Assembly (NCBI GenBank): GCA_963760885.1
Contig: CAVXEY010000005.1
Span: forward strand, 8,641 to 72,640
DNA: 64,000 nucleotides
DNA from: an uncultured delta proteobacterium
GTDB taxonomy: Bacteria > Desulfobacterota > Deferrimicrobia > Deferrimicrobiales > Deferrimicrobiaceae
Reading direction: 5' to 3'
Below, one piece after another: positions 12,059-63,474 of the stretch; the stretch's first letter is position 1; every line of letters begins with the position of its first letter. The notes under the pieces were generated by a model. That model ran no database searches. It saw nothing but the letters and a program-made list of their open reading frames with translations, and was not told the DNA's origin. The position numbers and the translations under genes were made by a program.

Positions 12059-13344
12059 CACTCTTGCGGCGGCACCTCGGCGCGTTCCTCCTGATTTTCT
12101 GCGCGGCCTGTTCCCTGGTCGCCGCCCCGCCGGCCGCCGCCGCTCCCGGTGCCCCCGACGTCTCCGACATCCGGGCCTGGACGAACGAGATCTACACCCG
12201 CGTCGCGATCTACACGGGCGACGAGGTTACGTGGGAGGCGAACACCGTCCGCGCCGACCCCGCGCGCGGCCTTCCTCCCCGGATCTTCATCGACATCCGC
12301 GGCGCCGGCGTACGGGACGGGATCCTCCGCAAGCCGGTCGACGTTCGCAACGGCCTGCTTCGACAGGTCCGCGCGGGTCGATTCGACCGCGACACGGTGC
12401 GCGTGGTCATCGACCTCGAGCGGGAGAGCACCTACCGCGTCTTCGCGCTCCCGGGCCCGTTCCGGGTCATCGTGGACATCGACGGGGAAGGGGAGATCCC
12501 CGCTCTCCCGGTCTCCCCCGGATCCGTCGCCGCGGATCCGTCGCCAAAGGTTCCGGTTCCAGCCCCGGCGGCCCCTTCCACGCCTCCGGCGATTCCGCCG
12601 TCGGTGGAATCTCCGCGCGTCGCCGCCTCGAACCCTTCCCTCCTCCGGAAGCAACGCGTGCGGGTGATGATCGACCCGGGCCATGGGGGGAAGGATCCGG
12701 GGGCGACCGGTCGGTCCGGGCTGAAAGAAAAGGACGTGGTATTGGAGATCGGCCGGAGGATCCGCGAGAAACTCGAGCGTTCGGGGGAGTTCGACGTGCG
12801 GATGACCCGGGACAAGGACGTCTTCATCCCGCTGGAGGAACGCACGGCGATGGCGAACAAGGGGGGCGCCGACCTCTTCGTCTCCCTCCACATCAACGCG
12901 AGCCGGAACCGGAAGGCGGAGGGTTTCTCCACCTACGTCCTCTCCCGCGGCGCGTCGAATCGGGAGGACCTCGAACTGGCCGCGCGCGAGAACGGTGTGC
13001 CGATCGGCAAGTTCCAGGGGGTCAAGTTCATCATCGACGACATGTTCACAGGGGCGCGCAAGAACGAGTCGTTGCGCCTGGCCAAGACGGTGAACGACGC
13101 CGTCGTCCGCCACGTCTCCACCCGATATCCGGGGGCGCACAGCCTCGGGCTGAAGCAGGCCCCGTTCTACGTCCTCGTGGGCGCCCGGATGACGGCCGTC
13201 CTGGTCGAGGCCTCCTTCATCAGCAACGAACGGGAAGAGGCTCGCCTGCGGGATCCCTCGTGCCTCGACGGGATCGCCGACGGGGTGGTGGAGGCGATCC
13301 GCTACTACGGGCAGAACGGGATCCTCGCCCACTCGGATCTCTGA
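12055..13344 (+). CDS. N-acetylmuramoyl-L-alanine amidase with AMIN domain
   Basis: GTG overlaps the mutS stop. Signal peptide, AMIN-like region, Pro-rich linker, Amidase_3 motifs IDPGHGGKDPGA and SLHINA. Confidence 0.8.
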   Translation: MTLLRRHLGAFLLIFCAACSLVAAPPAAAAPGAPDVSDIRAWTNEIYTRVAIYTGDEVTWEANTVRADPARGLPPRIFIDIRGAGVRDGILRKPVDVRNGLLRQVRAGRFDRDTVRVVIDLERESTYRVFALPGPFRVIVDIDGEGEIPALPVSPGSVAADPSPKVPVPAPAAPSTPPAIPPSVESPRVAASNPSLLRKQRVRVMIDPGHGGKDPGATGRSGLKEKDVVLEIGRRIREKLERSGEFDVRMTRDKDVFIPLEERTAMANKGGADLFVSLHINASRNRKAEGFSTYVLSRGASNREDLELAARENGVPIGKFQGVKFIIDDMFTGARKNESLRLAKTVNDAVVRHVSTRYPGAHSLGLKQAPFYVLVGARMTAVLVEASFISNEREEARLRDPSCLDGIADGVVEAIRYYGQNGILAHSDL

Positions 13345-29199: not shown

Positions 29200-29277
<78 letters not shown>

Positions 29278-32010: not shown

Positions 32011-32072
32011 CACCCGCCTTCTCCCGCTTGATATAGTTCCCGGTAAACGTGATCTCCTCCCCCGGAGGTTTA

Positions 32073-35000: not shown

Positions 35001-35078
35001 GGCCAGCTCGGCGACGGAACGACGACCAGTCGGTTGACGCCGGTGCTGGTAATGAAGGACGGCTTGCCGTTCAAGTGA
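32073..35078 (+). CDS. lipoprotein with three GATIRYT.DGS.PT (chitobiase/hexosaminidase C-terminal-like) domains and 14 RCC1 repeats
   Basis: Start set to ATG 32073 (GGAGG RBS). Lipobox LIGC. 14 counted units of HTVALKSDGTVWAWGYN.YGQLGDGTT.DR.TPV.V.GL. Confidence 0.85.
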   Translation: MRKVPFIVLVAMAMVLGTVLIGCGGGGGDGGTTDEGTSSTVSTSIFSPPPGTYTTAQSVTLSTTTSGATIRYTTDGSLPTETVGTVYSSPIPVSTSMTIRAMAYLSGWTTSSVSSGTYTINIPASTVSTPIFSPPPGTYTTAQSVTLSTTTSGATIRYTIDGSTPTESYGTVYSGISFPVSSTTSIKAIAYLSGWTPSAVATGTYTINIPAGTVSSPTLSPLPGVYTTPQSVTLSTTTSGASIRYTIDGSTPTDTYGTVYTSPIPVSASMTIRAVAYLSGWTSSLVSDGTYTITIPFTSTAVSAGDGHTVALKGDGTVWAWGWNFKGELGDGTTFDRSTPMRVVGLTGVVAVSAGYYHTVALKSDGTVWTWGYNATGQLGDGTTTQRWTPMQVSGLSGVVAVSANSYHTAALKSDGTVWAWGYNAYGQLGDGTTTDRLTPVQVVGLTGVVAVSAGYGETDAVKSDGTVWACGNNAHGQLGDGTTTPRLTPVQVVGLTGVVAVSANIARTVALKGDGTVWAWGYNNYGQLGDGTTTDRWTPVQVVGLTGVVAVSAGSYHTVTVKSDETVWAWGYNENGQLGDGTTTDRWTPVRVSGLSGVVAVSAAGGHTVAVKSDETVWAWGDNFNGQLGDGTTTDRWTPVLVSGLTRVSAVSAGAWYTVALKSDGTVWAWGSNYSGELGDGTATDRLTPVQVVGLSGVVAVSAGADHTIALKSDGTVWAWGHNVNGPLGDGTTFDRSTPVQVVGLTGVVAVSAGAGSTVALKSDGTVWAWGYNGYGQLGDGTTTDRWTPVQVVGLTGVIAVSGGVAHTVALKGDGTVWAWGANIYGQLGDGTTTDRLTPVQVVGLSGVVAVSAGADHTIALKSDGTVWTWGYNGYGQLGDGTITTRLTPVQVWALSGADAVSGGEYHTVALKSDGIIWAWGRNTSGQLGDGTTTDLLTPVQVVGLTGVVAVSVGYTHNVAVKRDGTVWAWGWNLLGQLGDGTTTSRLTPVLVMKDGLPFK
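32985..35040 (+). repeat. ~150-bp tandem coding repeats (RCC1 blades), highly similar at DNA level
   Basis: Recurrent strings such as cgcgctcaagagcgacgggaccgt.tgggcgtggggg. Confidence 0.85.
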
Positions 35079-38318: not shown

Positions 38319-39446
38319 CGGGCGGGTGGAAGGGACGGCGTACTTCTACCGGGTGAGGGCGGTCAACGGCGCCGGGAACTCGGCGTACTCCAACGAGGCG
38401 AGCGCGACGACATCGGCTTGCTCTTCCCGCAGCCCCCGCTAATCTATCCGCCACAGCGGTCTCGGTCGTCGCAGATCAACCTGACTTGGACGGATCAGTC
38501 CAGCCAACGAAACGGGCTTCCAGATCGAGCGGAAGACCGGGGCGGGCGGGACGTACGCCCTGATCGTGACGGCAGCCGCCAACGCAACGGCCTACAGCGA
38601 TACCGGGCGTGCGGAAGGGACGACGTACTTCTATCGGGTGCGGGCGGTCAACGGTGCCGGGAACTCGGCGTACTCCAACGAAGCGAGCGCGACGACGACA
38701 TCTCGGTTTCTCCTCCCGCGGCCCCCGCCATCCTGTCCGCCGCAGCGGTCTCGTCCTCCCAGATCAATCTCACCTGGACGGATCAATCTGATAACGAGGA
38801 CGGGTTCCGGGTCTATCGCGGGACGGACTCCTCGACCGTTACAACCCTCATGGCCACCCTTGGTGTGGGGATCACGAGTTACTCGAATACCGACCTCGCT
38901 GCCTCGACGACCTACTACTACAAGGTAACGACGTTCAACACCGCAGGAGAGTCCGCTGCATCGAACGTTGCCAACGCGACGACCGAACCTCCTCCTGTGA
39001 CCATACCTTTCGCACCCACGAACCTCCAAGCGACCGCCGCATCAAGTTCCGTCATCAACTTGACCTGGAACGATGCCTCCGCCAACGAGACGGGCTTCCA
39101 GATCGAGCGGAAGACCGGTGCGGGCGGGACGTACGCCCTGATCGTCACGACAGCCGCCAACGCAACGGCGTACAGCGACAGCGGGCTTGCGGAAGGGACG
39201 GCGTACTTCTACCGGGTGAGGGCGGTCAACGGGGCCGGGAACTCGGCGTACTCCAACGAGGCGAGCGCGACGACGCCATCCTCCGGAACAGGTGGCGGAA
39301 GCAGCGGTGGTGGCGGTGGCGGCGGATGTTCAATCTCACCTGAAGGGAAATCAAAAGGTGAATCGCCATTGGGAACAATGTTGACCCTATTTTTACCTGG
39401 GATCATTTTGGTTGTGCGAAAGGCAATATACAGGAAGCAAATCTAA
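38305..39446 (+). pseudogene. frameshifted continuation: FN3 repeats plus C-terminal Gly-rich/Cys/TM/basic sorting-like tail
   Basis: The FN3 reading passes through frames 1,2,0,1,0 between 38305 and ~38700. From there an intact ORF runs to 39446, ending GGGGGGGCS...LFLPGIILVVRKAIYRKQI. Confidence 0.65.
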
Positions 39447-43490: not shown

Positions 43491-44096
43491 TCATTTCGAG
43501 CGGTCTTCCCCCTTCCTTATGGTGTCGTAAATGAGGGCTCCGGCTTTTGCGTCCGAGATCAATTCACGTTCGTCGATATGGGACGACAGGTGTTTTCCTA
43601 TCGCTTCGCGGATCGTGAGTTGTCTCCGCGTCGTCGCCGCCTGGTACTCCTCGCGATAGTTCTCCGTGTAGATTTCCCATATCCGCTTCCGCACTATGTC
43701 CTTTCCCTTTCCCTTCTGCTTCCCCTTCCGATTGAAGGACACCTTTCCCGTCTTGGGACTTACCCGGCAGCCGAGGGCTGACACCTTCTTTTCGATCTGC
43801 CCCGCTCCTACCGCGAGCCGGAGGATGTAACCGCCGAGTTCATTCAAGGTCGCAGCGAATCGCTTTCGGTCCTCCTCGTCCATCGGAAGGTCACGATTGA
43901 CGATCGCAGCGGCCCTTATGATTTCACCCTTCGCCACTAATTGGTCATATGTTCCGTAAACTGTCAGCGCGGGGATGCACTCCCACAATAAATTTTCCGG
44001 ATCGCCTTTCCATTCCAATCCTGCAAGCATCATCGCCAGGAATGCGTGTTGTCTTCGAGGATGATCGGTGAAGGAAACCTTGTCTTTCGCCATCAT
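43491..44096 (-). CDS. hypothetical protein co-transcribed with integrase
   Basis: 201 aa. ATGA overlap with the integrase stop. Confidence 0.55.
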   Translation of the reverse strand: MMAKDKVSFTDHPRRQHAFLAMMLAGLEWKGDPENLLWECIPALTVYGTYDQLVAKGEIIRAAAIVNRDLPMDEEDRKRFAATLNELGGYILRLAVGAGQIEKKVSALGCRVSPKTGKVSFNRKGKQKGKGKDIVRKRIWEIYTENYREEYQAATTRRQLTIREAIGKHLSSHIDERELISDAKAGALIYDTIRKGEDRSK

Positions 44097-45319
44097 GCAC
44101 CTCCCGCCGTTTCTTTCGCCTCCTTCACTATCCGGCTCATTACATCCGATCCGCGTTTCAGCGCCGCATCGGTCAAGTGCGCGTACCGTTGCGTCATCGT
44201 CGGGCTTTTGTGCGTCAGGAGTCGCTGCAAAGTGTAGAGGTCCACTTCACCGGATGATGCGAGCATGGACGCGAAGACGTGCCGGAGCCCGTGCATCGGC
44301 CGGAAATCTTTCGGGAGCTTCGCTGCCTCGCGGATCGCGCGAAGATTCTTCGATGCGTCGGCTTTCGGGCGGTACTCCTTCGAACCGTCCTTCTTCCGGA
44401 TGACTCGGCCCGGAAAGATATAGGGGCAATCCTTCCGGCGGGGACGATGCTCCAGGAGTTCGCGTGCTTCTTCGGGAAGCGGAATCGTTTGATCCGTCCC
44501 GCCTTTCGGTTCGCGCAGCGTGATAAAGCCGCGCCGGAAGTCCACGTCCTCCCATGTCAGCCGGAAGATTTCCCCGCGGCGCATCCCGGTATAGATCGCC
44601 ATGAGCATGATTTCCCGCGCGTCGGGGTCGAGTGTCGTTTTCGTTCCGTCCTTCTCCGTTACGGTTCCGTCGTGTAGGATCCCCAGGAGCCGCGCCATTT
44701 GCCCCGCGTTTAAGTCCTCCGTTTTTAAGTTGTTCACCTTCGGCATGGTCACGCGGAAGGGGAGGGGATCGCACAGTCGCTTGTTCGCCGCGAAGTTCGA
44801 CAGCCGCCGGAGGAGTTCGAGGACGTTTTTCACCGTCCCCGCTTTCAGTTTCTTCGACAGTTTCATCCGGAGCCGGTCCACGTCGAGGGGGACTATCTCA
44901 CGCGGTTCCTTGTCGCCGAAGGTAGGGGAGAGGTGTTTCGTGAAGTTCGTTTCATCGGTCGCACTTCGCTTCGCCTCCGGCTTCCCCGCCTGGTATTCAT
45001 TCCACAACTTGTCGAAGGTCCACCGCTCCGCGATGGCCTTTTTCTCGGCCCGCTCCGCTTCGCGCCGCTCGCGGTTCGGGAGTACCCGTCCTTTGATTTT
45101 GTCGGAGCGTATGCCCGCGGCGACGGCCTCCGTGATCTTATCCCCGTCCTCCGTCCTGTCGCCCTCGCGCCCGATCTTCTCGAAGTGTTGTTTCCCTGCC
45201 CGGCGATACGAGACATAGAAGATCCGTTGCGGATCGCCCAGGGGATCGGTTCCGAGGATGACGTAGACGCCGGGGTACTTCGTCCGGATCGGGGAGAAGC
45301 TGCGTTTCCGCTCTACCAT
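44093..45319 (-). CDS. tyrosine integrase (family distinct from the other two)
   Basis: 408 aa. AIYTGMRRGE, HGLRHVFASML, LLTHKSPTMTQRYAH. 190 bp from attR. Confidence 0.9.
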   Translation of the reverse strand: MVERKRSFSPIRTKYPGVYVILGTDPLGDPQRIFYVSYRRAGKQHFEKIGREGDRTEDGDKITEAVAAGIRSDKIKGRVLPNRERREAERAEKKAIAERWTFDKLWNEYQAGKPEAKRSATDETNFTKHLSPTFGDKEPREIVPLDVDRLRMKLSKKLKAGTVKNVLELLRRLSNFAANKRLCDPLPFRVTMPKVNNLKTEDLNAGQMARLLGILHDGTVTEKDGTKTTLDPDAREIMLMAIYTGMRRGEIFRLTWEDVDFRRGFITLREPKGGTDQTIPLPEEARELLEHRPRRKDCPYIFPGRVIRKKDGSKEYRPKADASKNLRAIREAAKLPKDFRPMHGLRHVFASMLASSGEVDLYTLQRLLTHKSPTMTQRYAHLTDAALKRGSDVMSRIVKEAKETAGGA

Positions 45320-45373: not shown

Positions 45374-45508
45374 AGCGACGGGATAATTATAACCGATGAT
45401 ACCCCGTTACCGTCAAACGTTATTTCACGTTATTATTTAGTATATTCGGGAGGGTACTACTTCAAGGAGACGTTATGTCTGATGATGGGAAAAGGGCCTG
45501 TTTTCATT

Positions 45509-45554
45509 CTCATAACCCGAAGGTCCCAGGTTCAAATCCTGGCCCCGCTACCAA
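45509..45554 (+). repeat. attR-type copy: displaced 3' half of tRNA-fMet
   Basis: 46/46 identical to 29232-29277. No 5' half is present. Confidence 0.9.
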
Positions 45555-45650: not shown

Positions 45651-46793
45651 TTATCCGGCATTACCAACGCCCATTTTCTGAGGCGGTGGGTTTCCACCCC
45701 CCGAAATCGCCGGCGGAGTGGGGAACGGGAGTACACCACCCGCTTCCTCGAACCCTTTCAGGAACCGCGTGCCGTCGCGCCGCATCCGGTTCCGGATGAA
45801 CTTCCCGTAGTGCCGGAAGATCATGTCGAGCGTGGTGTGCCCGAGCATCCGGGCCACCCACAAAGGGTCCTCGCCGTGGGAGAGCATCAGGGACGCGAAG
45901 GTGTGGCGCGTCTGGTACATCGTGCGCTTGCGGAGTTTCGCGCTCTGCATCGCCGGGTACCAGACCTTGTTCCGCAGGTTGTTGACCTCCATCGGGTTGC
46001 CTTTCCTGCCCGTGAAGACGTGGGTTGCGTCTTCCGGTGAAGCGAGTCGGTGCTGACGCAGTACCTCGTAGAGGGGATCGAGCATGTCGATGTCCCGGTA
46101 CGAGGAGAGGGTCTTGGGCGGCCCCTCGAACCCCTGCACGCGTCCCTCCCGGATCGTGATGCAACGCATCTCGAAGTCGACGTGGAGCCACTTCAGCGCC
46201 AGCATCTCGTTGGGCCGCATCCCGGTCAAGAACGCCGTGGTGAAGTAAGGGACGTGGTGCGGGTCGACGTGCGCCAGGAACGCCTTCATCTCCGGGAAGG
46301 AGAAGGGGTCGATGAACGGCCTGTCCTCCTTGAACCGGCGGATGAGCTCGGTCGGGTTGTTCTTGATGTCTCCCCGGCGCTTGGCGTCGTTGAACAGGCA
46401 CTTCACCGGGACCATGATGTTGTTCTTGCGCTTGGCGGAGAGCGGTCCCAGGGTTTCCAGGAAATCCTCCATATCCCGGTGGGTGACCTGGCACAGCGGG
46501 GTTTTCCCGAAGTGGGGCAGGGCGTACACCTTCATGATCGAGGCGTAGTCCCCGTATGTCGACCTCGAAACGGTCACCTTCTTCCTCTCCAGCCAGCTGG
46601 CCGCGTACTCGGAGAAGGGGGTCTTGGCGGCCTCGAAGATCCCGAGGTACTCCTGCCGCTCGATCTTGACCAGCAGGTCCCTCTCCACCATGAGAGCGGT
46701 TTTCTTGGAGCGGCCAACGCGCCTGCGGACACGCCGGCCTCTTGCGTCCCGAACGTCTACGTAGTACGTGTTTCCTCGTGTGTAGATGCTCAC
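45651..46793 (-). CDS. tyrosine integrase (full-length paralogue of 26762..27787)
   Basis: 380 aa. N-terminal arm-type domain IYTRGNTYYVDV..., C-terminal YQTRHTFASLML...ARMLGH...HYGKF. Confidence 0.9.
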   Translation of the reverse strand: MSIYTRGNTYYVDVRDARGRRVRRRVGRSKKTALMVERDLLVKIERQEYLGIFEAAKTPFSEYAASWLERKKVTVSRSTYGDYASIMKVYALPHFGKTPLCQVTHRDMEDFLETLGPLSAKRKNNIMVPVKCLFNDAKRRGDIKNNPTELIRRFKEDRPFIDPFSFPEMKAFLAHVDPHHVPYFTTAFLTGMRPNEMLALKWLHVDFEMRCITIREGRVQGFEGPPKTLSSYRDIDMLDPLYEVLRQHRLASPEDATHVFTGRKGNPMEVNNLRNKVWYPAMQSAKLRKRTMYQTRHTFASLMLSHGEDPLWVARMLGHTTLDMIFRHYGKFIRNRMRRDGTRFLKGFEEAGGVLPFPTPPAISGGGNPPPQKMGVGNAG

Positions 46794-53120: not shown

Positions 53121-53597
53121 ATGGGAACACCTCCTTCTGGACTATAATGATGCCAGCATGAATGATGATATCTGCTATCTACTCCATAAGGTAGGGGCGA
53201 AACATGGCCGCTAAGGATTGTGGAGCGCCAATGCGAAGATCCCCGTTATAACAAATTTCTTGCGATGCAATGAGGACAGGTACGAAGGTCCAGATGGGTT
53301 TTTCGCTGACACGACAGCGATTGTCGCCTGTGTCATGTTATAAGTTTCCATGTGATTGTCCGCTGCAGTTGGTGTCTTTATATAATGTTTGGTAAAGAAT
53401 AGCCAGTGATCGGGCTTCCGGCAACCGGCCGAAATCCCGGAGTATTCCATTAGGGGAATAACCACTTTTCAAACTTGTATGTGGGAGAATGAGACTGATG
53501 ATTTTTATCACATCACAACTTAAAAATTCATCCAGATGCCTCCAAAGTTTTCCTCTCAGTATTATTATCCAATTAACGGGTAAAATTGAAAGAATCA

Positions 53598-55814
53598 ATG
53601 CGCAATTCTAAATTTAAGGCAATATCATTTTTTTCCGGTGGCGGTGGGATGTCAATTGGGTTTCAGGAAGCTGGATTTGAAATATTATTGTTTAATGATG
53701 TGGAACTAGACTCAGCTGAAACACATGCGATAAATTTTCATAAAGTTCCTTTTATTTTAAAAGATATATCAACAATTAAAGAAAATGATCTGCGTTCCAT
53801 TATTGGAGATAATGAAATTGATGTTATGATTGGGGGCCCGCCGTGCCAAGGATTTAGTAATATGGGTGACAAGGCCGCTTGCGATCCAAGGAATCAATTG
53901 TTCGACTCATATATAAGAATTGTAAAATGGATAAAACCAAAATGTGTATTGATAGAGAATGTTGTTGGAATAAAAACTTTATATGGGGGAGTATTTTTTA
54001 ATAAAATTTGCGATTCACTTTCACTAATTGGTTATGATGTATATGCTAAAATTTTAGATTCTAGCGAATATGGGGTTCCACAAATTAGAAAAAGAATGTT
54101 CATATTTTGCACAAGAATTGACGGGTATTTCTGTTTCCCTTCTCCCAGATTTACGCGTATTGGAAATCTTATCCCCGCCTTGACAGTTGGCGACGCAATT
54201 ATGGACCTTGTGGGGAAAGATGAGGGATTTCAGAATCATGCGCCTTTGAATCATAGCGAGAAGGTCATTGCAAGGTATAAGTTAATACCAGAAGGAGGAA
54301 AACTCCCTCCTAAGGATAAGCTTCCTCCTGATATTCGACGCGAAAATTTTGGAAATACGTATGTACGGCTCGATCGCAGCAAACCATCTTCTACAATGGT
54401 ACCGGGTAATAACGCTTTTCCTGTGCATCCAACTCTTAACCGAAGTTTGACGCCACGAGAAGCGGCCCGTTTGCAATCGTTCCCCGATGATCATATATTT
54501 TTTGGAACCAGGGCAAAACAATGCCATTTAGTCGGCAATGCAGTTCCACCGCTTCTTGCCGCCCACTTGGGCGTGACGATCAAGGATTATCTGCATGGGA
54601 TATTGAAAGCCCCTTCAATAAATGATTTGTCATATTTGATGTGCAAAAAAGGTGAAGGGTTTAAGCATAAATCTATCATGTCAAAAAATCGCAAAGAAAC
54701 ATTGACGTTCGTAGATTTATTTTCAGGAGTAGGAGGTTTTTGCCAAGGATTCAAGCAAGCCGGCTTAATACCATTGTTGTCTGTAGATAATAATTATTTT
54801 GCTGCAGAATCCCATAATTTGAATCATCCGGATGTTCCTTTTATAATGGGAGATCTTTCTGAAAATACCGTACAGAATAAAATAATGAAAATATTGAACG
54901 GGAAAAAAGTTGATATTTTAGTGGGAGGTCCTCCCTGCCAAGGGTTTTCAATTTTCGGGTCAAGGAGATTTGTGAATTCAAAGAATTATAACCCATTATC
55001 CGATAACCGTAATGACCTTATAAAAATATTTTGGAAGTATGTTGACTTGTTAAAACCAGACTGGGTTGTAATGGAAAACGTGCCTGGTTTTGTTAGCTTG
55101 CTTGACGGGTATTACTACAGAGAGGCTGTTAACATGGCACGTGGGCTCGGGTATAGGATTGAAGATAATGTGCTGAATGCTGCTGATTACGGTGTACCGC
55201 AACTGCGTAAGCGATTTTTGATGATAGCTACACGGACAAAGTATGTAATTCCTTGGCCAAAAGCGAAATATTATGAGTATCCAAGGGATTGGCAGAAGCC
55301 TTATAGGACTATTGGTGAGGTCCTTACAGATCTTTCGGACAAAGCCACATACGATAAATATCCAAATCATTGCCCTCCAAAACACAATAAAATTGTTGCC
55401 GAACGGTTTTCTTATATAAAAGAAGGTAAAAGATTGGATCCAAATGATTTGCCACCCCGTTTGTCAAATGGAGTTAAGACAGGGCGAGCGGTAAAGAATT
55501 TCAGTCACATATTCCGAAGGCTTGATAGAAATAAACCTGCAAGAACAATGGTTCCAGGACATAACGCTTTTCCTGTTCATCCGTGGTTGAATCGTACACT
55601 TACAATTCGGGAGGTTGCACGGATCCAAACTTTCCCAGACCAATATGTTTTTGTTGGGCCAATAATTGAGCAAGGTCTACAGGTTGGAAATGCATTTCCA
55701 TGCCTTCTTGCACAACACCTTGCTGAGAGGCTACTAAGGGTTGTTCGGAATAAATGGACGCGTGATTCAATTACTGATTTGGCTGCATACAGCATGATAG
55801 CCAAGGAAAAGTGA
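53598..55814 (+). CDS. fused tandem DNA (cytosine-5)-methyltransferase (two complete C5-MTase domains)
   Basis: Domain 1: FFSGGGGMSIGF, GGPPCQGFS, ENVVGI, QIRKRMFIF, GNAVPP. Domain 2: LFSGVGGFCQGF, GGPPCQGFS, ENVPGF, QLRKRFLMIA, GNAFP. Alternative TTG start at 53586. Confidence 0.9.
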   Translation: MRNSKFKAISFFSGGGGMSIGFQEAGFEILLFNDVELDSAETHAINFHKVPFILKDISTIKENDLRSIIGDNEIDVMIGGPPCQGFSNMGDKAACDPRNQLFDSYIRIVKWIKPKCVLIENVVGIKTLYGGVFFNKICDSLSLIGYDVYAKILDSSEYGVPQIRKRMFIFCTRIDGYFCFPSPRFTRIGNLIPALTVGDAIMDLVGKDEGFQNHAPLNHSEKVIARYKLIPEGGKLPPKDKLPPDIRRENFGNTYVRLDRSKPSSTMVPGNNAFPVHPTLNRSLTPREAARLQSFPDDHIFFGTRAKQCHLVGNAVPPLLAAHLGVTIKDYLHGILKAPSINDLSYLMCKKGEGFKHKSIMSKNRKETLTFVDLFSGVGGFCQGFKQAGLIPLLSVDNNYFAAESHNLNHPDVPFIMGDLSENTVQNKIMKILNGKKVDILVGGPPCQGFSIFGSRRFVNSKNYNPLSDNRNDLIKIFWKYVDLLKPDWVVMENVPGFVSLLDGYYYREAVNMARGLGYRIEDNVLNAADYGVPQLRKRFLMIATRTKYVIPWPKAKYYEYPRDWQKPYRTIGEVLTDLSDKATYDKYPNHCPPKHNKIVAERFSYIKEGKRLDPNDLPPRLSNGVKTGRAVKNFSHIFRRLDRNKPARTMVPGHNAFPVHPWLNRTLTIREVARIQTFPDQYVFVGPIIEQGLQVGNAFPCLLAQHLAERLLRVVRNKWTRDSITDLAAYSMIAKEK

Positions 55815-55815
55815 T

Positions 55816-57057
55816 TTGATTTACCATCATGAATTGGCAAAAAATTCCACTGACAAGGTTCTTTTCAATTGGAAGAACGGAGTATGGTCAAATAATTTTA
55901 TATCAACAAACACATATCAAACAATTGCATCACAGGTTTTTCCATCCCCGGATTCGATGTTTTTTGACCCAGATAATAAACGATCTATTGCATTTGAATT
56001 TAAGCCACCTACTGAAACTAAAAGGGGCATCCTTACTGGTGTTGGGCAATCAATTGCTTACCTTTCAGAGGCGAGTGTTTCATTCCTAATCGCGCCTAGT
56101 CATGTGGAAGGTTATAATATTGCTGTGGACCTAGAAAAACTTTATAAAAGTAAGATATATGACAAATTGCCAACTGGCTTGATAGTCTATGATGATGATT
56201 ATGCAAAATCATTGACACTTGCTGTAGATATAGGGGAGCGAGCGATTATAAGTGAAAGTAAAATTCGAGGTATCGCGAATAGATATTGGGCGAAACATCA
56301 GGATCTGCCATTACACTTAATATGGTTAATTCTTGATGAGGCATACAATTTGCCTGATATACCAAATAGAAGGGCTACTATATGGAAAAATTGCTGGAAT
56401 AAATATTTGTACCCAACTGAACACAGAAATACACTCACTGTATATCCTACGATTATTCTAAAACATGATGGCAATCCATTATATGTATTTGATAGAATAA
56501 AGACAGCTTTAAAAGAAAAAATCGATGATAGGAAGATCACGATGGAAGAAGCTTTAGAGGTATTAAAAAAGGAATCAGATACTGAATATGTTGGCGATAA
56601 TCTATTTAATGCCTATGGTAAAAACTACATTACATTTATTAAACATTTGCAATTATGGGATGATAATGGAAACCTTACAGAAGACGGTCTTCATTTGCAT
56701 AGAATTGGAAAACTGCATAAACCACAGAGTCTTACTTTTAGGGATCACTTTGCAAAAATATTGTTGTTCAACGGGAAACATTTAGATCTTATTCTTGATG
56801 TAGAAAACAAAACAAGAAACAAAATATTTAATAATGTGAATGAAGTAACATCATATATTAGAGATGATTTTATTGAAAATGGGTATTATAAAAGGAATCC
56901 TGGAAGAGGGACTGGTGAAACGCAACAATTTTTGAAATATGAAAGAATAATATGGGGACATATTGGAATATTAACAAAGATAAATAATAAACAATATATG
57001 CCAGGAAAAGGCTTCAATTTTGATTGGAAACAGATAACAAGGTTGTGCTCCTTGTGA
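55816..57057 (+). CDS. candidate type II restriction endonuclease (PD-ExK)
   Basis: TTG start 1 nt after the MTase stop. FFDPDNKRSIAFEFKPP fits PD...ExK. Low GC like the MTase. Confidence 0.55.
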   Translation: MIYHHELAKNSTDKVLFNWKNGVWSNNFISTNTYQTIASQVFPSPDSMFFDPDNKRSIAFEFKPPTETKRGILTGVGQSIAYLSEASVSFLIAPSHVEGYNIAVDLEKLYKSKIYDKLPTGLIVYDDDYAKSLTLAVDIGERAIISESKIRGIANRYWAKHQDLPLHLIWLILDEAYNLPDIPNRRATIWKNCWNKYLYPTEHRNTLTVYPTIILKHDGNPLYVFDRIKTALKEKIDDRKITMEEALEVLKKESDTEYVGDNLFNAYGKNYITFIKHLQLWDDNGNLTEDGLHLHRIGKLHKPQSLTFRDHFAKILLFNGKHLDLILDVENKTRNKIFNNVNEVTSYIRDDFIENGYYKRNPGRGTGETQQFLKYERIIWGHIGILTKINNKQYMPGKGFNFDWKQITRLCSL

Positions 57058-57115
57058 AATTACGGATGGAAAGGATAAAAAAATAGACATATGGTCTAAA
57101 AAGAAGAGAAGTGAA

Positions 57116-57502
57116 GTGATGGCTAAAATTCGCTCGAAAAATACAAAACCAGAGCGAATAGTAAGATCAACTCTTCACATAATGGGATTACGCTTTAGAC
57201 TCCATAGGAAAGATTTTCCTGGTTCACCAGATTTATTACTACCAAAATATAAATTGGCCATATTCGTCAATGGTTGTTTCTGGCATTTTCATAAAGCTTG
57301 CAGAAATGGAAAAATACCTGACAGCAATAGCAAAATGTGGGAAAAGAAATTAAATGACAATATTGAAAGGGATAAAAATAATATTAAAGAATTAAGAAAA
57401 ATAGGATGGAATACTGTTGTCTTTTGGGAGTGTGAAATAAAAAAAGATATCAATATTATAAAAAGGAAATTGTTGAAAATTGTTAAAGATTTTAAAGAGT
57501 AA
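57116..57502 (+). CDS. vsr: very short patch repair endonuclease
   Basis: IRSKNTKPE, GSPDLLL, FVNGCFWHFH. The conserved N-terminal residues continue upstream of GTG 57116 without a canonical start. Confidence 0.85.
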   Translation: MMAKIRSKNTKPERIVRSTLHIMGLRFRLHRKDFPGSPDLLLPKYKLAIFVNGCFWHFHKACRNGKIPDSNSKMWEKKLNDNIERDKNNIKELRKIGWNTVVFWECEIKKDINIIKRKLLKIVKDFKE

Positions 57503-57804
57503 GAGAACAAAATAATTTATTTTGAAATAGTGACGACATGTTTGCTGCTGGCGATTTGGAATAAATGCTTTTTTTGGCTTGATCGCAAAGTGACTGTGGA
57601 CTTGGCAATCTACCCCTCAGCAACTTTAGCAACCGACCCGAAGGTACACTCCCCGCTGAAGATCTGTAACCCCTTAACCGATAAAGGAATCAAGGGCCTC
57701 ACGAAGGTCCGAATTTTCTTTCTGTGACCAGAATGTGTCCTTCGACTTGAGGGCAGATCTGACAGGCACTTCAGCGATTCATATCCGCAGGGCGGGAGAG
57801 AGGA

Positions 57805-58941
57805 ATGTTGATCAAGGAACGCGATAACCACGACTCCGACGTCGAAAGTTTACGGAGTCTGTTGAAGTGCCAGATATCGGCCAAGCAGCGGTTTCTCATT
57901 GAGCGAGAGATAAAGTGCGTCGGCTCCGGAGCAAGGGGAGAGGACAGCTCTGCGTACTATATCGATTTTCGGTCCAGAGACAGCAAGAACACCGCGATCA
58001 TTCACGACTTGAGGTTGGAATATCGGGGATTTGTCGCCCAGATCGACCACTTGTTGATCAATCGCTTACTCGAAATTTATGTTCTGGAGTCTAAAAACTA
58101 CTACTACGGGGTCAAGATAACCCCTGAGGGTGAGTTCCTTGTATGGAATGGGAAAACATACCTTCCCATTGAGTCTCCCATCGAGCAAAACAAACGCCAT
58201 ATCGACCTTCTGCGGAGAGTGATCGAGCAACCGGGGTTCTTGCCAACGAGACTCGGTGTATCCATTCCCCCATCGTTTCTCAGCTATGTCATGGTGGCGC
58301 CCAATAGTCGTGTCGATCGACCTGCGCAGGGGAAGTTCGATACCAGCATGGTGATCAAAGCGGATGGACTCGATGCCGTTATTGAAAAGAGAATTGTCAA
58401 GGCATCCCCAGTGGATGTTTTTTCCTCCCTGGCAAAGGTAGTCTCGCAGGAGACACTGGAAACATTCGCTCGAAGATTGGTTCGACTTCACCGTCCCTCG
58501 AAAATCGATTATGCGGCTAAGTTCGGTGTCACGGTTACAGCTCCACCTGCCACAAAACCGCAGTCGTCAGCTGTCATACCAACAAATAACGGGAATGGGG
58601 GCGTCACTAAGAGAGAGCCCATCTGCGAGGCCTGCGGTGGGGCAGTGGATGCAAAGGTTGTGTATTACTGCCGTGTCAACAGAGAGAATTTTAGAGGGAA
58701 AATTCTCTGCCGATCCTGTCAGCAACCACCGGTTATCAACCCCGTGGGTCAACCGGTGTCGATCAAGATAAATAAAAATGCGACCTCTACTGGAAATTCG
58801 ACAACGCAGAAAGGGGTGTGTGAGAAATGCGGTGTCGCAGTGGATGGGAAGGTGGTGTTCTTCTGTCGCATGAACAAGGGAAAGTTTGATGGGAAGATTC
58901 TTTGTCGATCTTGTCAGTGGACAGCGTTAACTCAGGCCTGA
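57805..58941 (+). CDS. NERD-domain nuclease-like protein with two C-terminal zinc-ribbon repeats
   Basis: NERD pattern (GEDSSAYYID...QIDHLLINRLLEIYVLESKNY...IEQNKRH). Two repeats of C.(A/K)CG..VD.KVV.(Y/F)CR.N...F.GKILCRSCQ. Confidence 0.75.
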   Translation: MLIKERDNHDSDVESLRSLLKCQISAKQRFLIEREIKCVGSGARGEDSSAYYIDFRSRDSKNTAIIHDLRLEYRGFVAQIDHLLINRLLEIYVLESKNYYYGVKITPEGEFLVWNGKTYLPIESPIEQNKRHIDLLRRVIEQPGFLPTRLGVSIPPSFLSYVMVAPNSRVDRPAQGKFDTSMVIKADGLDAVIEKRIVKASPVDVFSSLAKVVSQETLETFARRLVRLHRPSKIDYAAKFGVTVTAPPATKPQSSAVIPTNNGNGGVTKREPICEACGGAVDAKVVYYCRVNRENFRGKILCRSCQQPPVINPVGQPVSIKINKNATSTGNSTTQKGVCEKCGVAVDGKVVFFCRMNKGKFDGKILCRSCQWTALTQA

Positions 58942-59023
58942 GGGTGTCTACAAAATTAAGGGAAGTCCACTCATCGATCTGTTGGTGGTTTGTTAATTTA
59001 GTTTTTATTTGGTGATCATAAAT

Positions 59024-61504
59024 ATGGGAAAAAGTAATCGAAAGAAATTTAGATCAGATAGGCTAGCAAAAGATAAGAAGAGGCGGATGCCGGATGATTA
59101 TTTTCGTCATGGTACGTTCGAGATGGCTCGTTTTGGTAAATTGATTTATGCGAAAAATAATATGCCGAAAGAGCATTTTGAAAATATGCATGTTGAGTTA
59201 GCGAAACGATTTCCAGAGGTATGCCAAGAAATTGATTCTAAGGTTGGTAGAATAGTCGATATAGTTAAATTCCTTCCTACGACAGAAGTTCTTAAGCGAG
59301 CATATTGGGAGATGGCATTACTTCATGCAAATAAGGAATCAGAATTTGAGTTCGGGCATGAAGAAGGAATATCGCTGCGGATGCTGGATTATATACAAAG
59401 CATCATCGTCTCGGTCAAACCAGGTGAAGTGGTGGAGGAAGGGGTATCGGAAAAACGGTGGCAGGAACTAAAAACCTGTGTGATGGATTTGTTTACCCAG
59501 TTGAACTTAGAGTTTCAGATTTGTCTTACTGCATTTAATCGTCAAAAACCTGATTTTAACATGGATGTTGCGGAATATTATTTTAAGGCACAAATGTATT
59601 GGTGTAACGTTAGGGGAAAACGATACTCATATTATAACATGAAATATTACGTAGATGTATTAAAGGTGCATGAGAATATAATTAATGAATTGTATGGTAT
59701 AGGAATTGAAGAAATTATTAAGGCTTTGGACAATATACAAAAAGCACTTATATATGGAATAGGTGATTTGGTCGTAGATATGCGGCGTATCAATGAAATT
59801 GTAACTAATAAGCTTAAGGTGATGCAAGATCAAGGGAAGATTGAAGACGTAAAGACGTTGTATACGGCATGCGAGGCTATATTGAAAGATGAGGGGATGG
59901 CGGAATTACCTAATAGTATTGCGGGTAGGCTTGGGCTTGATTTGTTTGACTTAAAGAAGTTAACAGCATTGCCGGTATCACTATTGGATGATCTTTCATG
60001 GGAACCCGGACAGGATACAGAATTTTTTAGTGAGGGCGAATACAGGGGGTGGCCGTTAAGAATATGGCCAATATGGAAACGCCCATTTCTTAAGGTGGAT
60101 GGAAATTACTATTGTTTTGAGATGTACAGCTTATTTGATAATTTCTATCGAATCATGGAACGTCTAATAATTAAGAAGAGGAAAGAGTATCGAGAGATAT
60201 GGAATAAATATCAAAAGGAGCTGTCGGAGCAATTGCCACTTGATCTAATGAGCAAGATTCTTCCGAATGCAAGGATATATAAATCAGTATATTATAGAAC
60301 AAAAACTACCCCGGATGGGAGTAGTGAATGGTTTGAAGTTGATTCAATAATTATCTATGAGGATCATTTGTTTATATTCGAAATAAAAGCGGGGGCTTTT
60401 ACATATACATCTCCTGCAACAGATTTCATGGCTTATATCGAGTCCTTGAAGAATCTTGTGTTTAATCCTGCCAAGCAAGGGAATAGGTTTAAAAAATATA
60501 TAAATAGCTCCGATACGGTAAGCTTGTATGATTCCAAACATCAAGAAATATGCGCTATTTCTGCTAAGGATTTCGCCCATGTTACAATATGTGCGGTAAC
60601 GCTTGATCCATTTACTGAATTGGCATCGCAGGTTCAACATCTAAAGAAAATAGGTGTTGATGTTGGTGAAGAACCAGTATTAGCTATATCAATTGATGAT
60701 CTTAGAGTTTATGCAGATGTCTTCGAAAACCAATTAGTATTTCTTCATTACATAGAAGAAAGAATGAGGGCATTTAGGAGTAATATGATTGAGGTGGATG
60801 ACGAATTGGATCATCTTGGCCTATACATTAAGCACAATATATATACTCAGTATGTAAAAAATCTTGATCCTAATGGGCGGATTCGTTGGAATGGCTACCG
60901 TGTAGAGATAGATCGGTTTTATACTGAAAAACTAAGAGATCCGGAATGTAAATGTTTGATAAAACAAAAAATGCCTTCGAGATTTTTAGAAATAATTGAA
61001 AGGTTGGCTCAAAGTAACAAACCGAATCGAAGGAAAATTTCTAGTACATTGCTTGATTTGGATGGCCAAAACAGAAATGATATTTCTTCGGGGATTGACG
61101 ACAACTTAATCCGACAGTCAAAATTATTTAGAGCAAGGCCGCTGTCAATCCATGGATTAAATAGAATTACAATGTTTTGCTGGCAACTTGGGATTGTTGA
61201 GAGAAATTATGGAATGGCATTAAGACATACTCGGGCAGTTATGGCGATTAACAACGAGAAAGAAAGATTCCTGGTCGAGCTTATATATGATTCAAAAGGA
61301 ATATTGAAAGATGTGCTGTACGAAGCTGTAAAATTTGAAGATATACCAGAATCTATTTGTTCAGAAATAATGCACGAGGCTGAAAATATTAGAAAGAGGC
61401 GAATTGCGGAAGCAAGAAGTCAGAGGGGTAAAATTGGTCCTAACGCTGATTGTCCGTGCGGGAGTGGGAAAAAGTACAAAAAATGCTGCATGCGTCGCGT
61501 GTAA
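59024..61504 (+). CDS. uncharacterised 826-aa protein with central PD-(D/E)xK-like motif and C-terminal SEC-C metal-binding motif
   Basis: Start set to ATG 59024. EVDSIIIYEDHLFIFEIKAG. C-terminus CPCGSGKKYKKCC. Low GC. Confidence 0.7.
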   Translation: MGKSNRKKFRSDRLAKDKKRRMPDDYFRHGTFEMARFGKLIYAKNNMPKEHFENMHVELAKRFPEVCQEIDSKVGRIVDIVKFLPTTEVLKRAYWEMALLHANKESEFEFGHEEGISLRMLDYIQSIIVSVKPGEVVEEGVSEKRWQELKTCVMDLFTQLNLEFQICLTAFNRQKPDFNMDVAEYYFKAQMYWCNVRGKRYSYYNMKYYVDVLKVHENIINELYGIGIEEIIKALDNIQKALIYGIGDLVVDMRRINEIVTNKLKVMQDQGKIEDVKTLYTACEAILKDEGMAELPNSIAGRLGLDLFDLKKLTALPVSLLDDLSWEPGQDTEFFSEGEYRGWPLRIWPIWKRPFLKVDGNYYCFEMYSLFDNFYRIMERLIIKKRKEYREIWNKYQKELSEQLPLDLMSKILPNARIYKSVYYRTKTTPDGSSEWFEVDSIIIYEDHLFIFEIKAGAFTYTSPATDFMAYIESLKNLVFNPAKQGNRFKKYINSSDTVSLYDSKHQEICAISAKDFAHVTICAVTLDPFTELASQVQHLKKIGVDVGEEPVLAISIDDLRVYADVFENQLVFLHYIEERMRAFRSNMIEVDDELDHLGLYIKHNIYTQYVKNLDPNGRIRWNGYRVEIDRFYTEKLRDPECKCLIKQKMPSRFLEIIERLAQSNKPNRRKISSTLLDLDGQNRNDISSGIDDNLIRQSKLFRARPLSIHGLNRITMFCWQLGIVERNYGMALRHTRAVMAINNEKERFLVELIYDSKGILKDVLYEAVKFEDIPESICSEIMHEAENIRKRRIAEARSQRGKIGPNADCPCGSGKKYKKCCMRRV

Positions 61505-61596
61505 AATAAAGGATTATACTCAATTTAATTTCTCCATAAATCTTTGAACCAATGACTAACCCCCCCCGTGATCACTCCACCAGTGTCTTAGGCCAG

Positions 61597-61635
61597 CCAA
61601 CCCGAAGGTAACCTCCTTCCTGCGGGATATATTTC
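61597..61635 (+). repeat. 39-bp direct repeat, left copy
   Basis: CCAACCCGAAGGTAACCTCCTTCCTGCGGGATATATTTC versus 63250-63288 (one indel, one mismatch). Confidence 0.85.
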
Positions 61636-61825: not shown

Positions 61826-62221
61826 GTGCCTCCCCAGGAACTTCCGCAGAATGGCTTTATCGCGCGGTACCACAACCAACCTGCGGTCGCCCCGCTGACG
61901 ATCACTGTGGCGCCCGGGTCCCACTATCTGGTCAAGATCGAGGATGCTGGAAGCGGGGTACCCGTCCTTACAGTATTTATTCATTCTGGACAAACCATCC
62001 AAACCAAGGTTCCGATAGGTTCATACCGGATGAAGTACGCCATGGGAACGACTTGGTACGGGGAGCAGCACCTGTTTGGGCCAAGTACGAACTATCACAA
62101 GGCGGATCGAATCTTAGGGTTTGCCCAGACGTCGACCGGTTATTCCGGACATACCATCCAGTTGATCAGACAGGTGAGTGGAAACCTTCCCACCACGCAG
62201 ATTGGATCCCGAGACTGGTGA
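61826..62221 (+). CDS. hypothetical protein
   Basis: 131-aa ORF with protein-like composition. The overlapping 61669..62262 frame looks non-coding. Confidence 0.45.
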   Translation: MPPQELPQNGFIARYHNQPAVAPLTITVAPGSHYLVKIEDAGSGVPVLTVFIHSGQTIQTKVPIGSYRMKYAMGTTWYGEQHLFGPSTNYHKADRILGFAQTSTGYSGHTIQLIRQVSGNLPTTQIGSRDW

Positions 62222-63237: not shown

Positions 63238-63249
63238 GACCTTCGGGTG

Positions 63250-63288
63250 CCAAACCCGAAGGAACCTCCTTCCTGCGGGATATATTTC
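63250..63288 (+). repeat. 39-bp direct repeat, right copy (preceded by 9-bp-stem hairpin 63240-63262)
   Basis: CCAAACCCGAAGGAACCTCCTTCCTGCGGGATATATTTC. CCTTCGGGT/ACCCGAAGG forms the stem. Confidence 0.85.
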
Positions 63289-63474
63289 CGCGAAAGTTCT
63301 TCGAGTCATAGCCCACCATAATTTCCAGGTTGAGCTGCTGTGGCTAGGTTGCATCCCGCCCGAAGGTCAATTTGGCCTCCGTAATCGTCTTCTCTATCCG
63401 CTTCTTCCTCGAAACGAGGACCGCGAATCATGTAAATTAGAACCCTCAGGGTGGATCGAAAAACAGCAACGGGG

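Follow-up and report, generated by a model that had tools for sequence, protein, structure and literature searches.

A NERD-like protein with a SecA-type metal-binding knuckle: a candidate stand-alone immune nuclease in Deferrimicrobiaceae DNA

What is the task of a 97-kDa protein that has a nuclease-like core in its middle and the metal-binding tail of SecA at its end, and whose gene lies among restriction and toxin-antitoxin genes? The question is posed by a locus of an uncultured delta proteobacterium (Desulfobacterota, Deferrimicrobiaceae), of which we analyzed one stretch of 64,000 nucleotides (GenBank assembly GCA_963760885.1, contig CAVXEY010000005.1, positions 8,641 to 72,640 of the forward strand). 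This whole stretch is called the window below, and coordinates are counted from its first letter. An initial annotation, made from the letters alone, had singled out an open reading frame (ORF) for an 826-residue protein as a candidate novel defense effector. We propose, with moderate confidence, that the protein is a stand-alone, horizontally mobile, auto-inhibited immune nuclease acting against phages or other mobile elements. The proposal builds on the protein's architecture, the conservation of its residues in two families, the lack of a conserved partner gene, a foreign base composition, a patchy distribution and neighbors that belong to defense and mobile DNA. We infer the nuclease activity, its substrate (DNA or RNA), the trigger, the role of the knuckle and the defense phenotype.

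Architecture of the 826-residue protein

The ORF lies on the + strand, ends at 61504 and has two possible starts, TTG at 59009 and ATG at 59024. Read from the ATG, the gene (59024..61504 including the stop codon; taken from the ORF list and matched by full-length homologues) encodes 826 residues. The ATG is the likelier start because a Shine-Dalgarno-like GGTGA, read directly in the sequence (59011..59015, + strand), lies 8 nt upstream of it and homologues align from its methionine onward. As first described, the gene is poor in G+C (GC content 37.0%, versus 67.0% over positions 1–27000 of the window). The probability of 826 stop-free codons at this base composition is about 8.5e-31.

An AlphaFold2 model of the full protein, built on 57 homologues, reached a predicted local distance difference test score (pLDDT) of 85.7 and a predicted template modeling score (pTM) of 0.84. 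The segments described below are all encoded on the + strand. Residues 1–23 (59024..59092) form a basic tail with an isoelectric point (pI) of 11.9, disordered in the model (pLDDT <50 over residues 1–20). The tail leads into a family-specific N-terminal domain (residues 24–325, 59093..59998), which is made up of a small three-stranded sheet (residues 24–45) and a long all-helical region (residues 49–325); the limits follow the secondary structure of the model. The basic N terminus and the long helical regions had both been predicted in the initial annotation. No match to this domain was found in Pfam, PDB or Foldseek searches, and we propose it as a candidate sensor or regulatory domain.

The middle of the protein is an extended NERD-type PD-(D/E)xK module (residues 326–650, 59999..60973), assigned from the Pfam NERD match, hhalign comparison with paralogs and invariant residues. 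It opens with a conserved loop and hairpin bearing the motif GWPLRIWP (residues 326–365), continues with the core, a helix, three strands, a helix and more strands (residues 389–526), and closes with helices that carry a strongly conserved DDELDHLGLYxKHN segment (residues 537–650). The core shows the alpha-beta-beta-beta-alpha-beta order of the PD-(D/E)xK fold: helix 389–412, strands 417–427, 434–445 and 448–455, helix 468–493 and strand 499–526. In the model the catalytic positions fall where they are expected: the first helix carries E402, strand 2 has E438 and D440, and strand 3 has E453 and K455. The last four make up an ExD...ExK motif within EVDSIIIYEDHLFIFEIKAG (residues 438–457, 60335..60394), which spans beta2 and beta3. 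A PD-(D/E)xK core had been suspected at this very place; it is present and can now be narrowed to a NERD-like one. Among 57 relatives with 43–56% identity to the protein, to which all conservation counts below refer, E402, E438, D440 and E453 are invariant (57/57), and so are G457, Q485, G486 and R488. Position 455 (nucleotides 60386–60388) is lysine in 32 relatives and arginine in 25; the window protein itself has lysine.

Pfam NERD (PF08378) matches residues 415–495 with 21.5 bits (E 3.4e-4), where the gathering cut-off is 22.1, and matches 9 of the 57 relatives at E<=0.01. A second, paralogous family of about 715 residues, with members in Pseudomonas (P0311), Aliivibrio fischeri (WP_065621622.1), Psychrobacter, Adhaeribacter and Halodesulfovibrio, bears on this assignment. 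In hhalign the two families align with 99.7% probability (E 1.1e-26, 489 columns, about 15% identity) from about residue 303 of the query to its end, that is, over the C-terminal ~520 residues with the NERD core, the C-terminal domain and the knuckle. The N-terminal ~220–300 residues of the 715-residue proteins are unrelated to those of the 826-residue family, and the proteins are about 100 residues shorter. Pfam NERD matches 38 of 41 paralogs (best E 1.5e-7). Because the paralogs are related to the 826-residue family by hhalign and nearly all of them match NERD, membership of the NERD superfamily is firm by transitivity. The active site of the 715-residue family reads E302, E334-x-D336...Q349-x-K351, with E334, D336, Q349 and K351 all invariant; it is a D...QxK site, whereas the 826-residue family has D...Ex(K/R). 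The published NERD signature is (D/E/Q)xK (bioRxiv 10.1101/2024.01.29.577857). Since the catalytic residues are retained across two deeply diverged families, we argue for an active enzyme. A variable N terminus on a conserved C-terminal module would, as judged from these alignments, fit a variable sensor joined to a conserved effector.

The best Foldseek match of the full model is the electron cryo-microscopy structure of the defense nuclease Upx (9wuf; E 8.8e-3, probability 0.95), at a template modeling score (TM-score) of 0.21. Can2, Shedu SduA (8ps5_A, E 5.7e-2), AF1548, Cas4 and lambda exonuclease were further weak matches. Those weak matches that have a recognizable fold are all PD-(D/E)xK proteins; non-specific helical proteins were listed as well.

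The NERD module is followed by a basic alpha/beta domain (residues 651–800, 60974..61423, pI 9.3) that ends in a long helix (residues 776–801). It was delimited on a separate model of residues 645–826, for which pLDDT was 93.8. When the domain alone was compared with PDB by Foldseek, no match reached E<=1e-3; weak ones (E 0.02–0.06, best 0.022) were to endonuclease-like folds, namely a splicing endonuclease, Cas4, ACE1, MGME1 and lambda exonuclease. Tentatively, the domain may be a second, degenerate nuclease-like fold that lacks a conserved acidic triad.

The last residues (801–826, 61424..61501) form a SecA-type SEC-C metal-binding knuckle, which scores 32.1 bits against PF02810 (E 1e-7), well over the cut-off of 20.4, in agreement with the initial annotation. 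PF02810 is matched by all 57 relatives. The ligand pattern CxCxSG-x6-C(C/H) is satisfied by CPCGSGKKYKKCC (residues 810–822, 61451..61489): C810, C812 and C821 never vary, position 822 holds cysteine in 52 relatives and histidine in 5, and S814 is kept in at least 90%. Since the knuckle is invariant in both families, it is likely to matter. In SecA the serine equivalent to S814 has been linked to a preference for iron, and SecA-like knuckles bind iron or zinc, SecB and ribosomes, their E. coli carriers being non-immune (bioRxiv 10.1101/613315). YchJ, which has such motifs, has been described as a transcription factor that senses reactive oxygen species (ROS) or redox state (PMC13377102). By analogy, the knuckle might dock on the translation machinery, sense metal or redox state, or bind nucleic acid or a partner.

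The family and its relation to known systems

In a word-indexed search 565 matches were obtained, and the best 120 were nearly all about 800–830 residues long. When 1.84 billion cluster representatives were searched exhaustively with a profile, at least 878 clusters (50% identity) of about 820 residues were retrieved at E<=1e-30, and 2,270 at E<=1e-10. Length and all domains are very uniform across the 826-residue family. A scan of one genome per species gave 99 loci in at least 10 phyla, with taxa taken from record titles: Planctomycetota, Desulfobacterota/Geobacter, Nitrospirota, Chloroflexota, Verrucomicrobiota, Acidobacteriota, Latescibacterota, Spirochaetales, Caldisericales, and Alpha-, Beta- and Gammaproteobacteria. 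Members such as WP_012525587.1 (Anaeromyxobacter sp. K) and WP_243372633.1 (Geotalea) are deposited under the names "SEC-C metal-binding domain-containing protein", "YecA family protein" or "preprotein translocase subunit SecA". The last name is, by all the domain searches, a mis-annotation: the motor, preprotein cross-linking and helical scaffold domains of SecA are absent, and Pfam, NCBIfam and PDB match only the last ~20–45 residues. With SecA, YecA and YchJ the protein has in common a near-identical motif, CPCGSGKKYKKCC as compared with CxCxSG...C(H/C) in SecA, including the iron-linked serine, but just the last ~20 residues.

The protein had been put forward as a novel effector. This stands only in part: a large sequence family is already in databases, and what is new is its characterization. 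Its kind is also known, that of single-protein PD-(D/E)xK/NERD nucleases in defense islands. New is the architecture, in which a NERD core is joined to what may be a second endonuclease-like domain, to a SecA knuckle and to an N terminus that is swappable across two families; it was not found described in PADLOC v2, Pfam, NCBIfam, PDB or the literature searched.

The initial annotation could not place the protein in any named defense system and had suggested PADLOC and Foldseek as checks; neither matched it over its whole length. With PADLOC-DB v2.0.0, which includes Shedu, Abi and PDC candidates, only the models E1-E2, E2 and PDC-S12 were hit, all within residues 791–825, a tail of 20–30 residues. 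Matches in NCBIfam and PHROGs were likewise confined to the SEC-C tail. A known defense system was therefore rejected as an identity, since PADLOC, PHROGs, NCBIfam and Pfam together yielded just that tail and the sub-threshold NERD match. A relative of solved structure was sought by sequence as well, and PDB single-sequence and profile searches returned SEC-C peptides only, from the SecA and YchJ knuckles.

Several characterized proteins come close in one respect or another. Upx is reportedly a single-gene system from Gao et al. 2020. Like the 826-residue protein, it is a single large polypeptide with a PD-(D/E)xK nuclease, and the possible second nuclease-like domain would echo the two of Upx; it differs in being ~1,270 residues long and without a SEC-C knuckle, and the TM-score is just 0.21. 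Membership of Upx was rejected: no PADLOC Upx model matched the protein, and hhalign gave 1% against a Upx homologue (L065:6170-9943) that itself matches Upx at E 1.9e-125. Reports on Upx describe an auto-inhibition that is lifted by a phage protein, and Upx is said to recognize terminase (PMC13099982, PMC13601566).

NERD proteins (PF08378) have the same PD-(D/E)xK core and (D/E/Q)xK signature and are also tied to defense islands. The motif xEVDSIII...LFIFEIK of the 826-residue protein resembles AQIDHLLI...IYVLESK of a NERD protein encoded next to it in the window. Typical NERD proteins are small or fused to a helicase or zinc ribbon, whereas here the domain is embedded in a partnerless 97-kDa protein. 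One NERD protein, HEC-02B of the HEC-02 system, has been shown experimentally to be defensive and needs an ABC ATPase partner (bioRxiv 10.1101/2024.01.29.577857). Another, ZwsA (Zowangsin) of Pseudomonas aeruginosa, is a stand-alone NERD RNA endonuclease that acts alone against phages (bioRxiv 10.64898/2026.04.06.716636). ZwsA, too, unites several domains in one protein, and its NERD site also reads E...D...ExK, with the same 13-residue spacing from D to E. However, it measures 82.4 kDa, and its NERD site (residues 535–582) lies near the C terminus and is followed by an S4 domain, whereas in the 826-residue protein ~370 residues and the SEC-C knuckle come after the site. The published size and residue numbers of ZwsA, the description on which our comparison draws, argue against identity of the two.

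Shedu SduA (DUF4263) resembles the 826-residue protein as a stand-alone PD-(D/E)xK defense nuclease with variable N-terminal domains and gave one of the weak Foldseek matches; it differs in family and domain order, and no PADLOC SduA model matched our protein. Rugutis is a validated lactococcal single-gene antiphage protein with a SEC-C motif in an otherwise unmatched fold (PMC11381338). As described, it is set apart by its 359 residues, by the N-terminal position of its SEC-C motif and by having no reported nuclease domain.

A distant relative (29% identity over residues 119–691) is encoded on the Lactococcus plasmid pUCCL637D (L092, NZ_PP589724.1, 5358–8718). This copy is split by IS30 and annotated as two genes, a "NERD domain-containing protein" of 640 residues and a "SEC-C metal-binding domain-containing protein" of 146 residues. 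The name of the plasmid follows the pUCCL scheme of a study of the lactococcal plasmidome, from whose main text the plasmid is absent (PMC11381338).

Gene neighborhoods across loci and in the window

All-against-all clustering of ORFs within 10 kb at 85 loci revealed no conserved partner: the commonest cluster, HsdR-like, occurred at 7 loci, and no synteny with any housekeeping operon was found. Inspection of 12 gene tables likewise showed no conserved partner gene. The gene's GC content is more than 3 points under that of its flanks at 56 of 73 loci (median −6.2). A full-length homologue (44% identity) occurs on Photobacterium damselae plasmids, for example at 13266–15686 of NZ_CP035462.1, and distant, partly aligning relatives (~25–29% identity) on plasmids of Aliarcobacter, Bradyrhizobium, Rhizobium, Exiguobacterium and Lactococcus. 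A phage origin was rejected, for a tblastn search of 50,697 phage records gave no match to the family.

Enrichment near defense genes had been suggested as a check of the defense role, and the neighborhoods give a mixed picture. We annotated 13 neighborhoods, the window included, with Pfam, and known defense genes lay within 10 kb in about 6 of them. At the Anaeromyxobacter locus a type I restriction-modification (R-M) system lies directly downstream, together with a recombinase and a transposase; a second locus (L089) has ApeA, TIR/Thoeris-like genes and type I R-M; Geotalea has Abi_2, AbiEi, HipA and Tn7-like genes; and Colwellia has a NERD/Zn-ribbon gene, a 709-residue paralog and an SNF2 helicase. 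An integrase, NikA-like and NACHT-like genes and ThiF are found at L096, and an integrase, a transposase fragment and HipA at the Labrenzia locus.

Some loci were scanned with PADLOC. In a Sphingomonadaceae bacterium (L065, 6170–16120) the gene stands between Upx (E 1.9e-125) and Mokosh MkoA (E 1e-252), and adjacent ORFs at other loci matched type IIG R-M, a UvrD/GajB-like helicase and an Avs4-like STAND protein. The ORFs directly adjacent to the gene at 77 loci (143 ORFs, 47,908 residues) matched 155 models, several of them 2–3 times; ORFs about 8 kb away at the same loci (96 ORFs, 30,668 residues) matched 31, none more than once. The difference is about 3-fold per residue.

At one Colwellia sp. 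locus (L087, 9209–16741) four genes stand in a row, for a NERD + Zn_ribbon_Top1 protein, the family member, the 709-residue paralog and an SNF2/ResIII helicase. The paralog, which also ends in a SEC-C motif, lies tail-to-tail with the family member. The four genes may constitute a composite system, and PADLOC lists none of them as a system. The 715-residue paralog of Pseudomonas belongs to a fixed block seen on several contigs (L097–L101) and made up of type I R-M (in which a DUF1016/YhcG gene is embedded), a CAP12-PCTIR TIR protein, an integrase and the paralog. TraG-like, ParA and ParB/KorB-like genes are nearby, which suggests that a conjugative element carries the block as cargo. On one contig an AAA_13 ATPase comes after the paralog.

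In the window the gene had been placed in a defense islet with R-M, Vsr, NERD and HigBA genes, and all of these were found beside it, on the + strand. Library scans identified a fused double C5-cytosine (Dcm) methylase of 742 residues with two complete domains (53586–55814) and Vsr (57116–57502). One nucleotide after the methylase fusion begins an ORF for 413 residues, with no family match and a faint PADLOC REase_II match (E 0.0046). Together these genes (53586–57502) are probably a type II R-M system, its endonuclease belonging to an unrecognized family. Next comes the NERD protein mentioned above (57805..58941; 378 residues, two C-terminal zinc ribbons, Pfam NERD E 7.3e-16), whose gene ends 82 nt before the ATG. 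Its two tandem CxxC...CxxC ribbons are encoded by a 99-nt repeat (58624–58722 and 58819–58917; 72% identity); its GC content, 50.3%, is unlike that of both flanking genes, and it matches no PADLOC model. Downstream of the 826-residue gene lies an ORF for 131 residues (61826–62221) with no Pfam, PADLOC, NCBIfam or PHROGs match, flanked by one direct and one inverted copy of the 9-nt sequence ACCCGAAGG, and then HigB and HigA, recognized by library scans.

The islet belongs to a longer tract of foreign composition: GC is 39% from 53.1 to 61.6 kb and 39–59% over the whole of 29–63 kb, versus 67% in the first 27 kb. The sole tRNA found by ARAGORN and Rfam is tRNA-fMet (29200–29276). Its 3′ part recurs as an exact 45-nt copy 16.3 kb downstream, at ~45505–45552, between two tyrosine integrase genes (44096–45319 and 45654–46793, both on the − strand), and tRNA-fMet thus appears to be followed by a stack of at least two integrative elements. 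The first of them holds odd cargo for an integrative element, a 1009-residue protein with 14 RCC1 repeats and chitobiase/Fn3-associated domains (32049–35078) and a 342-residue fibronectin-III protein (38418–39446).

The gene had also been described as bounded by tRNA-core-like motifs. The likeness exists, since AACCCGAAGGT is a 9–11-nt match to the anticodon-stem/variable-loop part of tRNA-fMet. tRNA genes or fragments at the boundaries were rejected, however: ARAGORN and Rfam find none there, and the motifs have just these 9–11 nt in common with tRNA-fMet. The copies at 57636 and 61600 bracket a two-gene unit, not the gene alone. The window has 7 copies of ACCCGAAGG, a piece of the anticodon stem and variable loop, where 1.05 are expected: in tRNA-fMet, in the 45-nt copy and at five intergenic sites of the islet, 57636, 61600, 62285(−), 63240(−) and 63254. 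ACCCGAAGG is contained in the upstream direct repeat CAACCGACCCGAAGGTACACTCC (57630..57652, + strand), between vsr and the NERD gene. A repeat search also located a downstream copy 90 nt past the stop codon of the 826-residue gene, extended there to a 40-nt repeat (61594..61635, + strand). The two (57630–57652 and 61594–61616) are identical at about 17 of 20 core positions and enclose the NERD gene and the 826-residue gene. The 40-nt repeat (61596–61635) recurs past higBA at 63249–63288, with the last 24 nt identical, and the two ACCCGAAGG copies at 63240–63262 form a perfect hairpin.

A metagenome contig (Ga0075518_1000079, L093) matches the window at 97.5% identity over a 202-nt junction (8197–8398), which lies upstream of the NERD gene and takes in its first 26 nt. 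Beyond the junction it has different low-GC cargo, a 258-residue ORF of no known family. The contig also has a partial tRNA-fMet copy (5972–6003), a second CTCATAACCCGAAGG site and a 130-nt match (1432–1561) to window positions 63240–63368. From this comparison the junction appears to be a variable-cargo hotspot in related genomes. Because the contig keeps the junction with other cargo, the partial tRNA-fMet copy and the second CTCATAACCCGAAGG site, the boundary motifs are probably worn attachment (att)-type scars of elements targeting the anticodon arm of tRNA-fMet. An integron cassette array, an idea prompted by the co-oriented, repeat-separated genes from 53.5 to 63.2 kb, was rejected, as no R''/R' (RYYYAAC/GTTRRRY) attC-type sites were seen in the intergenic sequences read by eye.

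Proposed mechanism and rival explanations

On the reading that we favor, a protein of four parts, a ~300-residue helical N-terminal domain, the NERD-type module, the basic alpha/beta domain and a SecA-type Cys4 Fe/Zn knuckle, would act alone. In the uninfected cell the N-terminal domain would hold the nuclease in check. A cue derived from the invader, a protein or an unusual form of nucleic acid, would bind this variable domain and release the enzyme, and the NERD site would then cut, in a metal-dependent manner, either the invader's nucleic acid or the cell's own (abortive infection). Because it is what differs between the two families, the helical domain at the N terminus is an obvious candidate for both recognition and restraint. 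The C-terminal module would be the effector, in which the NERD active site is buttressed by the second domain and accompanied by the knuckle; the latter would serve as a docking or regulatory module and could place or restrain the enzyme, by analogy with SecA and its binding to SecB and ribosomes. The auto-inhibition would follow the logic reported for Upx, and ZwsA offers a precedent for a stand-alone NERD nuclease.

A number of observations weigh against this reading. Among PD-(D/E)xK enzymes it is unusual to find arginine in place of lysine, as at position 455 of 25 relatives, and catalysis could be altered or weak as a consequence. The NERD score falls just below the Pfam cut-off, so that the protein is "NERD-like" and no curated member of PF08378, and no hit of the full model in PDB or in the viral library BFVD reached E<=1e-3 in Foldseek. 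That the N-terminal domain is a sensor, or that the knuckle has any role, is purely inferred. In the literature on SEC-C or NERD nucleases and anti-phage defense we found no paper on this family. The genomic context is not uniform: one locus has toxin-antitoxin genes and IstB only (L003; IS21-type IstB, PIN, HepT/MNT), another toxin-antitoxin genes only, as two VapBC/PIN pairs between dnaE and gyrA (L085), and by Pfam a third (L095) has metabolic, transport and regulatory genes only. Metabolic genes also surround the family member at L094, with a weak MqsA antitoxin match and a dUTPase-family gene upstream, and efflux and metabolic genes at L091, where a HicB-like antitoxin and a helix-turn-helix gene are ~9 kb off. 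The near/far PADLOC comparison is crude, as it counts models and not genes. The association with defense and mobile DNA is real but not universal, and we take it as moderate guilt-by-association.

The protein could instead be a non-immune accessory enzyme of nucleic-acid processing or stress, working in repair, recombination, or RNA or ribosome quality control, with the knuckle as an iron/redox or ribosome module as in YecA and YchJ. We consider this unlikely, though it has points in its favor. The SecA-like knuckle proteins of E. coli, which bind iron or zinc, SecB and ribosomes, are non-immune (bioRxiv 10.1101/613315), YchJ has been described as a transcription factor that senses ROS (PMC13377102), the neighbors at several loci are metabolic or housekeeping genes only, and the uniform length and domains of the family are what a fixed cellular job would produce. 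Yet the family is patchy across phyla, its base composition is foreign at 56 of 73 loci, and the gene is found on plasmids and beside integrases and transposases, repeatedly next to defense genes and never in synteny with a housekeeping operon.

We give little credence to a two-gene system, in which the 378-residue NERD/zinc-ribbon protein and the 826-residue protein would act and move as one cassette. The layout of the window invites it: the two genes share a strand, the gap of 82 nt between them has no predicted + strand terminator, and the direct repeats CCRACCCGAAGGTAMMCTCC at 57630 and 61594 enclose exactly this pair. In Colwellia, moreover, a 263-residue NERD + Zn_ribbon_Top1 gene ends at the base that directly precedes the start codon of the homologue. 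But outside the window that Colwellia locus (L069, of which L087 and L088 are additional copies) is the only one of 77 loci with a NERD neighbor, and NERD is not among the recurrent neighbor families. Identity between the two NERD proteins is just 25% over 60 residues, and phmmer with both retrieves only themselves. The GC content also differs, 50.3% for the NERD gene versus 37.0% for the 826-residue gene, and NERD genes are common in defense islands, so that two adjacencies can be coincidence.

A selfish role, as a toxin-like nuclease that stabilizes its integrative elements or plasmids or competes on their behalf, likewise strikes us as improbable. It would suit the setting of the window gene (downstream of tRNA-fMet, in an element array that has two tyrosine integrases and att-like repeats), the metagenome contig with the same junction at 97.5% identity and other cargo, the frequency of toxin-antitoxin genes as neighbors, and the Lactococcus plasmid copy interrupted by IS30. 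However, neither the clustering at 85 loci nor the gene tables revealed a cognate antitoxin or immunity gene conserved alongside, and some loci have no mobile-element genes seen within 10 kb. The idea also overlaps with abortive-infection defense, from which it is hard to separate by sequence alone.

That the nuclease fold is catalytically dead and serves as a nucleic-acid-binding scaffold or regulator is scarcely credible: the arginine in 25 of 57 relatives and the sub-threshold NERD score would suit it, but E402, E438, D440 and E453 are invariant, the window protein has the canonical lysine, the paralogs retain D...QxK with an invariant lysine, and acidic metal ligands are usually the first to be lost in dead enzymes.

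Returning to the immune nuclease, one bolder version of it seems to us a long shot. The two NERD + SEC-C families might be new single-protein immune sensors whose knuckle docks on the ribosome, SecB or the translocon; translation of the invader, or a change in iron or redox state, would license cleavage, quite possibly of RNA, and the swappable N terminus would set which invader is recognized.

If the defense role is confirmed, a sizeable single-gene system would be added to those known, with at least 878 clusters (50% identity) and a paralogous family. Current defense catalogues were built mostly from Enterobacteria, Bacillus and Pseudomonas, and the family occurs in many environmental phyla that they cover thinly. 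Specialists already expect many uncharacterized nuclease families of this kind. The "SecA" names under which these proteins are deposited need correcting in any case. The SecA-type knuckle already stands, its role unexplained, at the tail of the PADLOC models E1-E2, E2 and PDC-S12 and in Rugutis; if our reading is true, the family would give it a first functional setting beyond protein secretion and stress regulation. Two families with one effector module and different N termini would, finally, amount to a natural experiment on how an invader is recognized.

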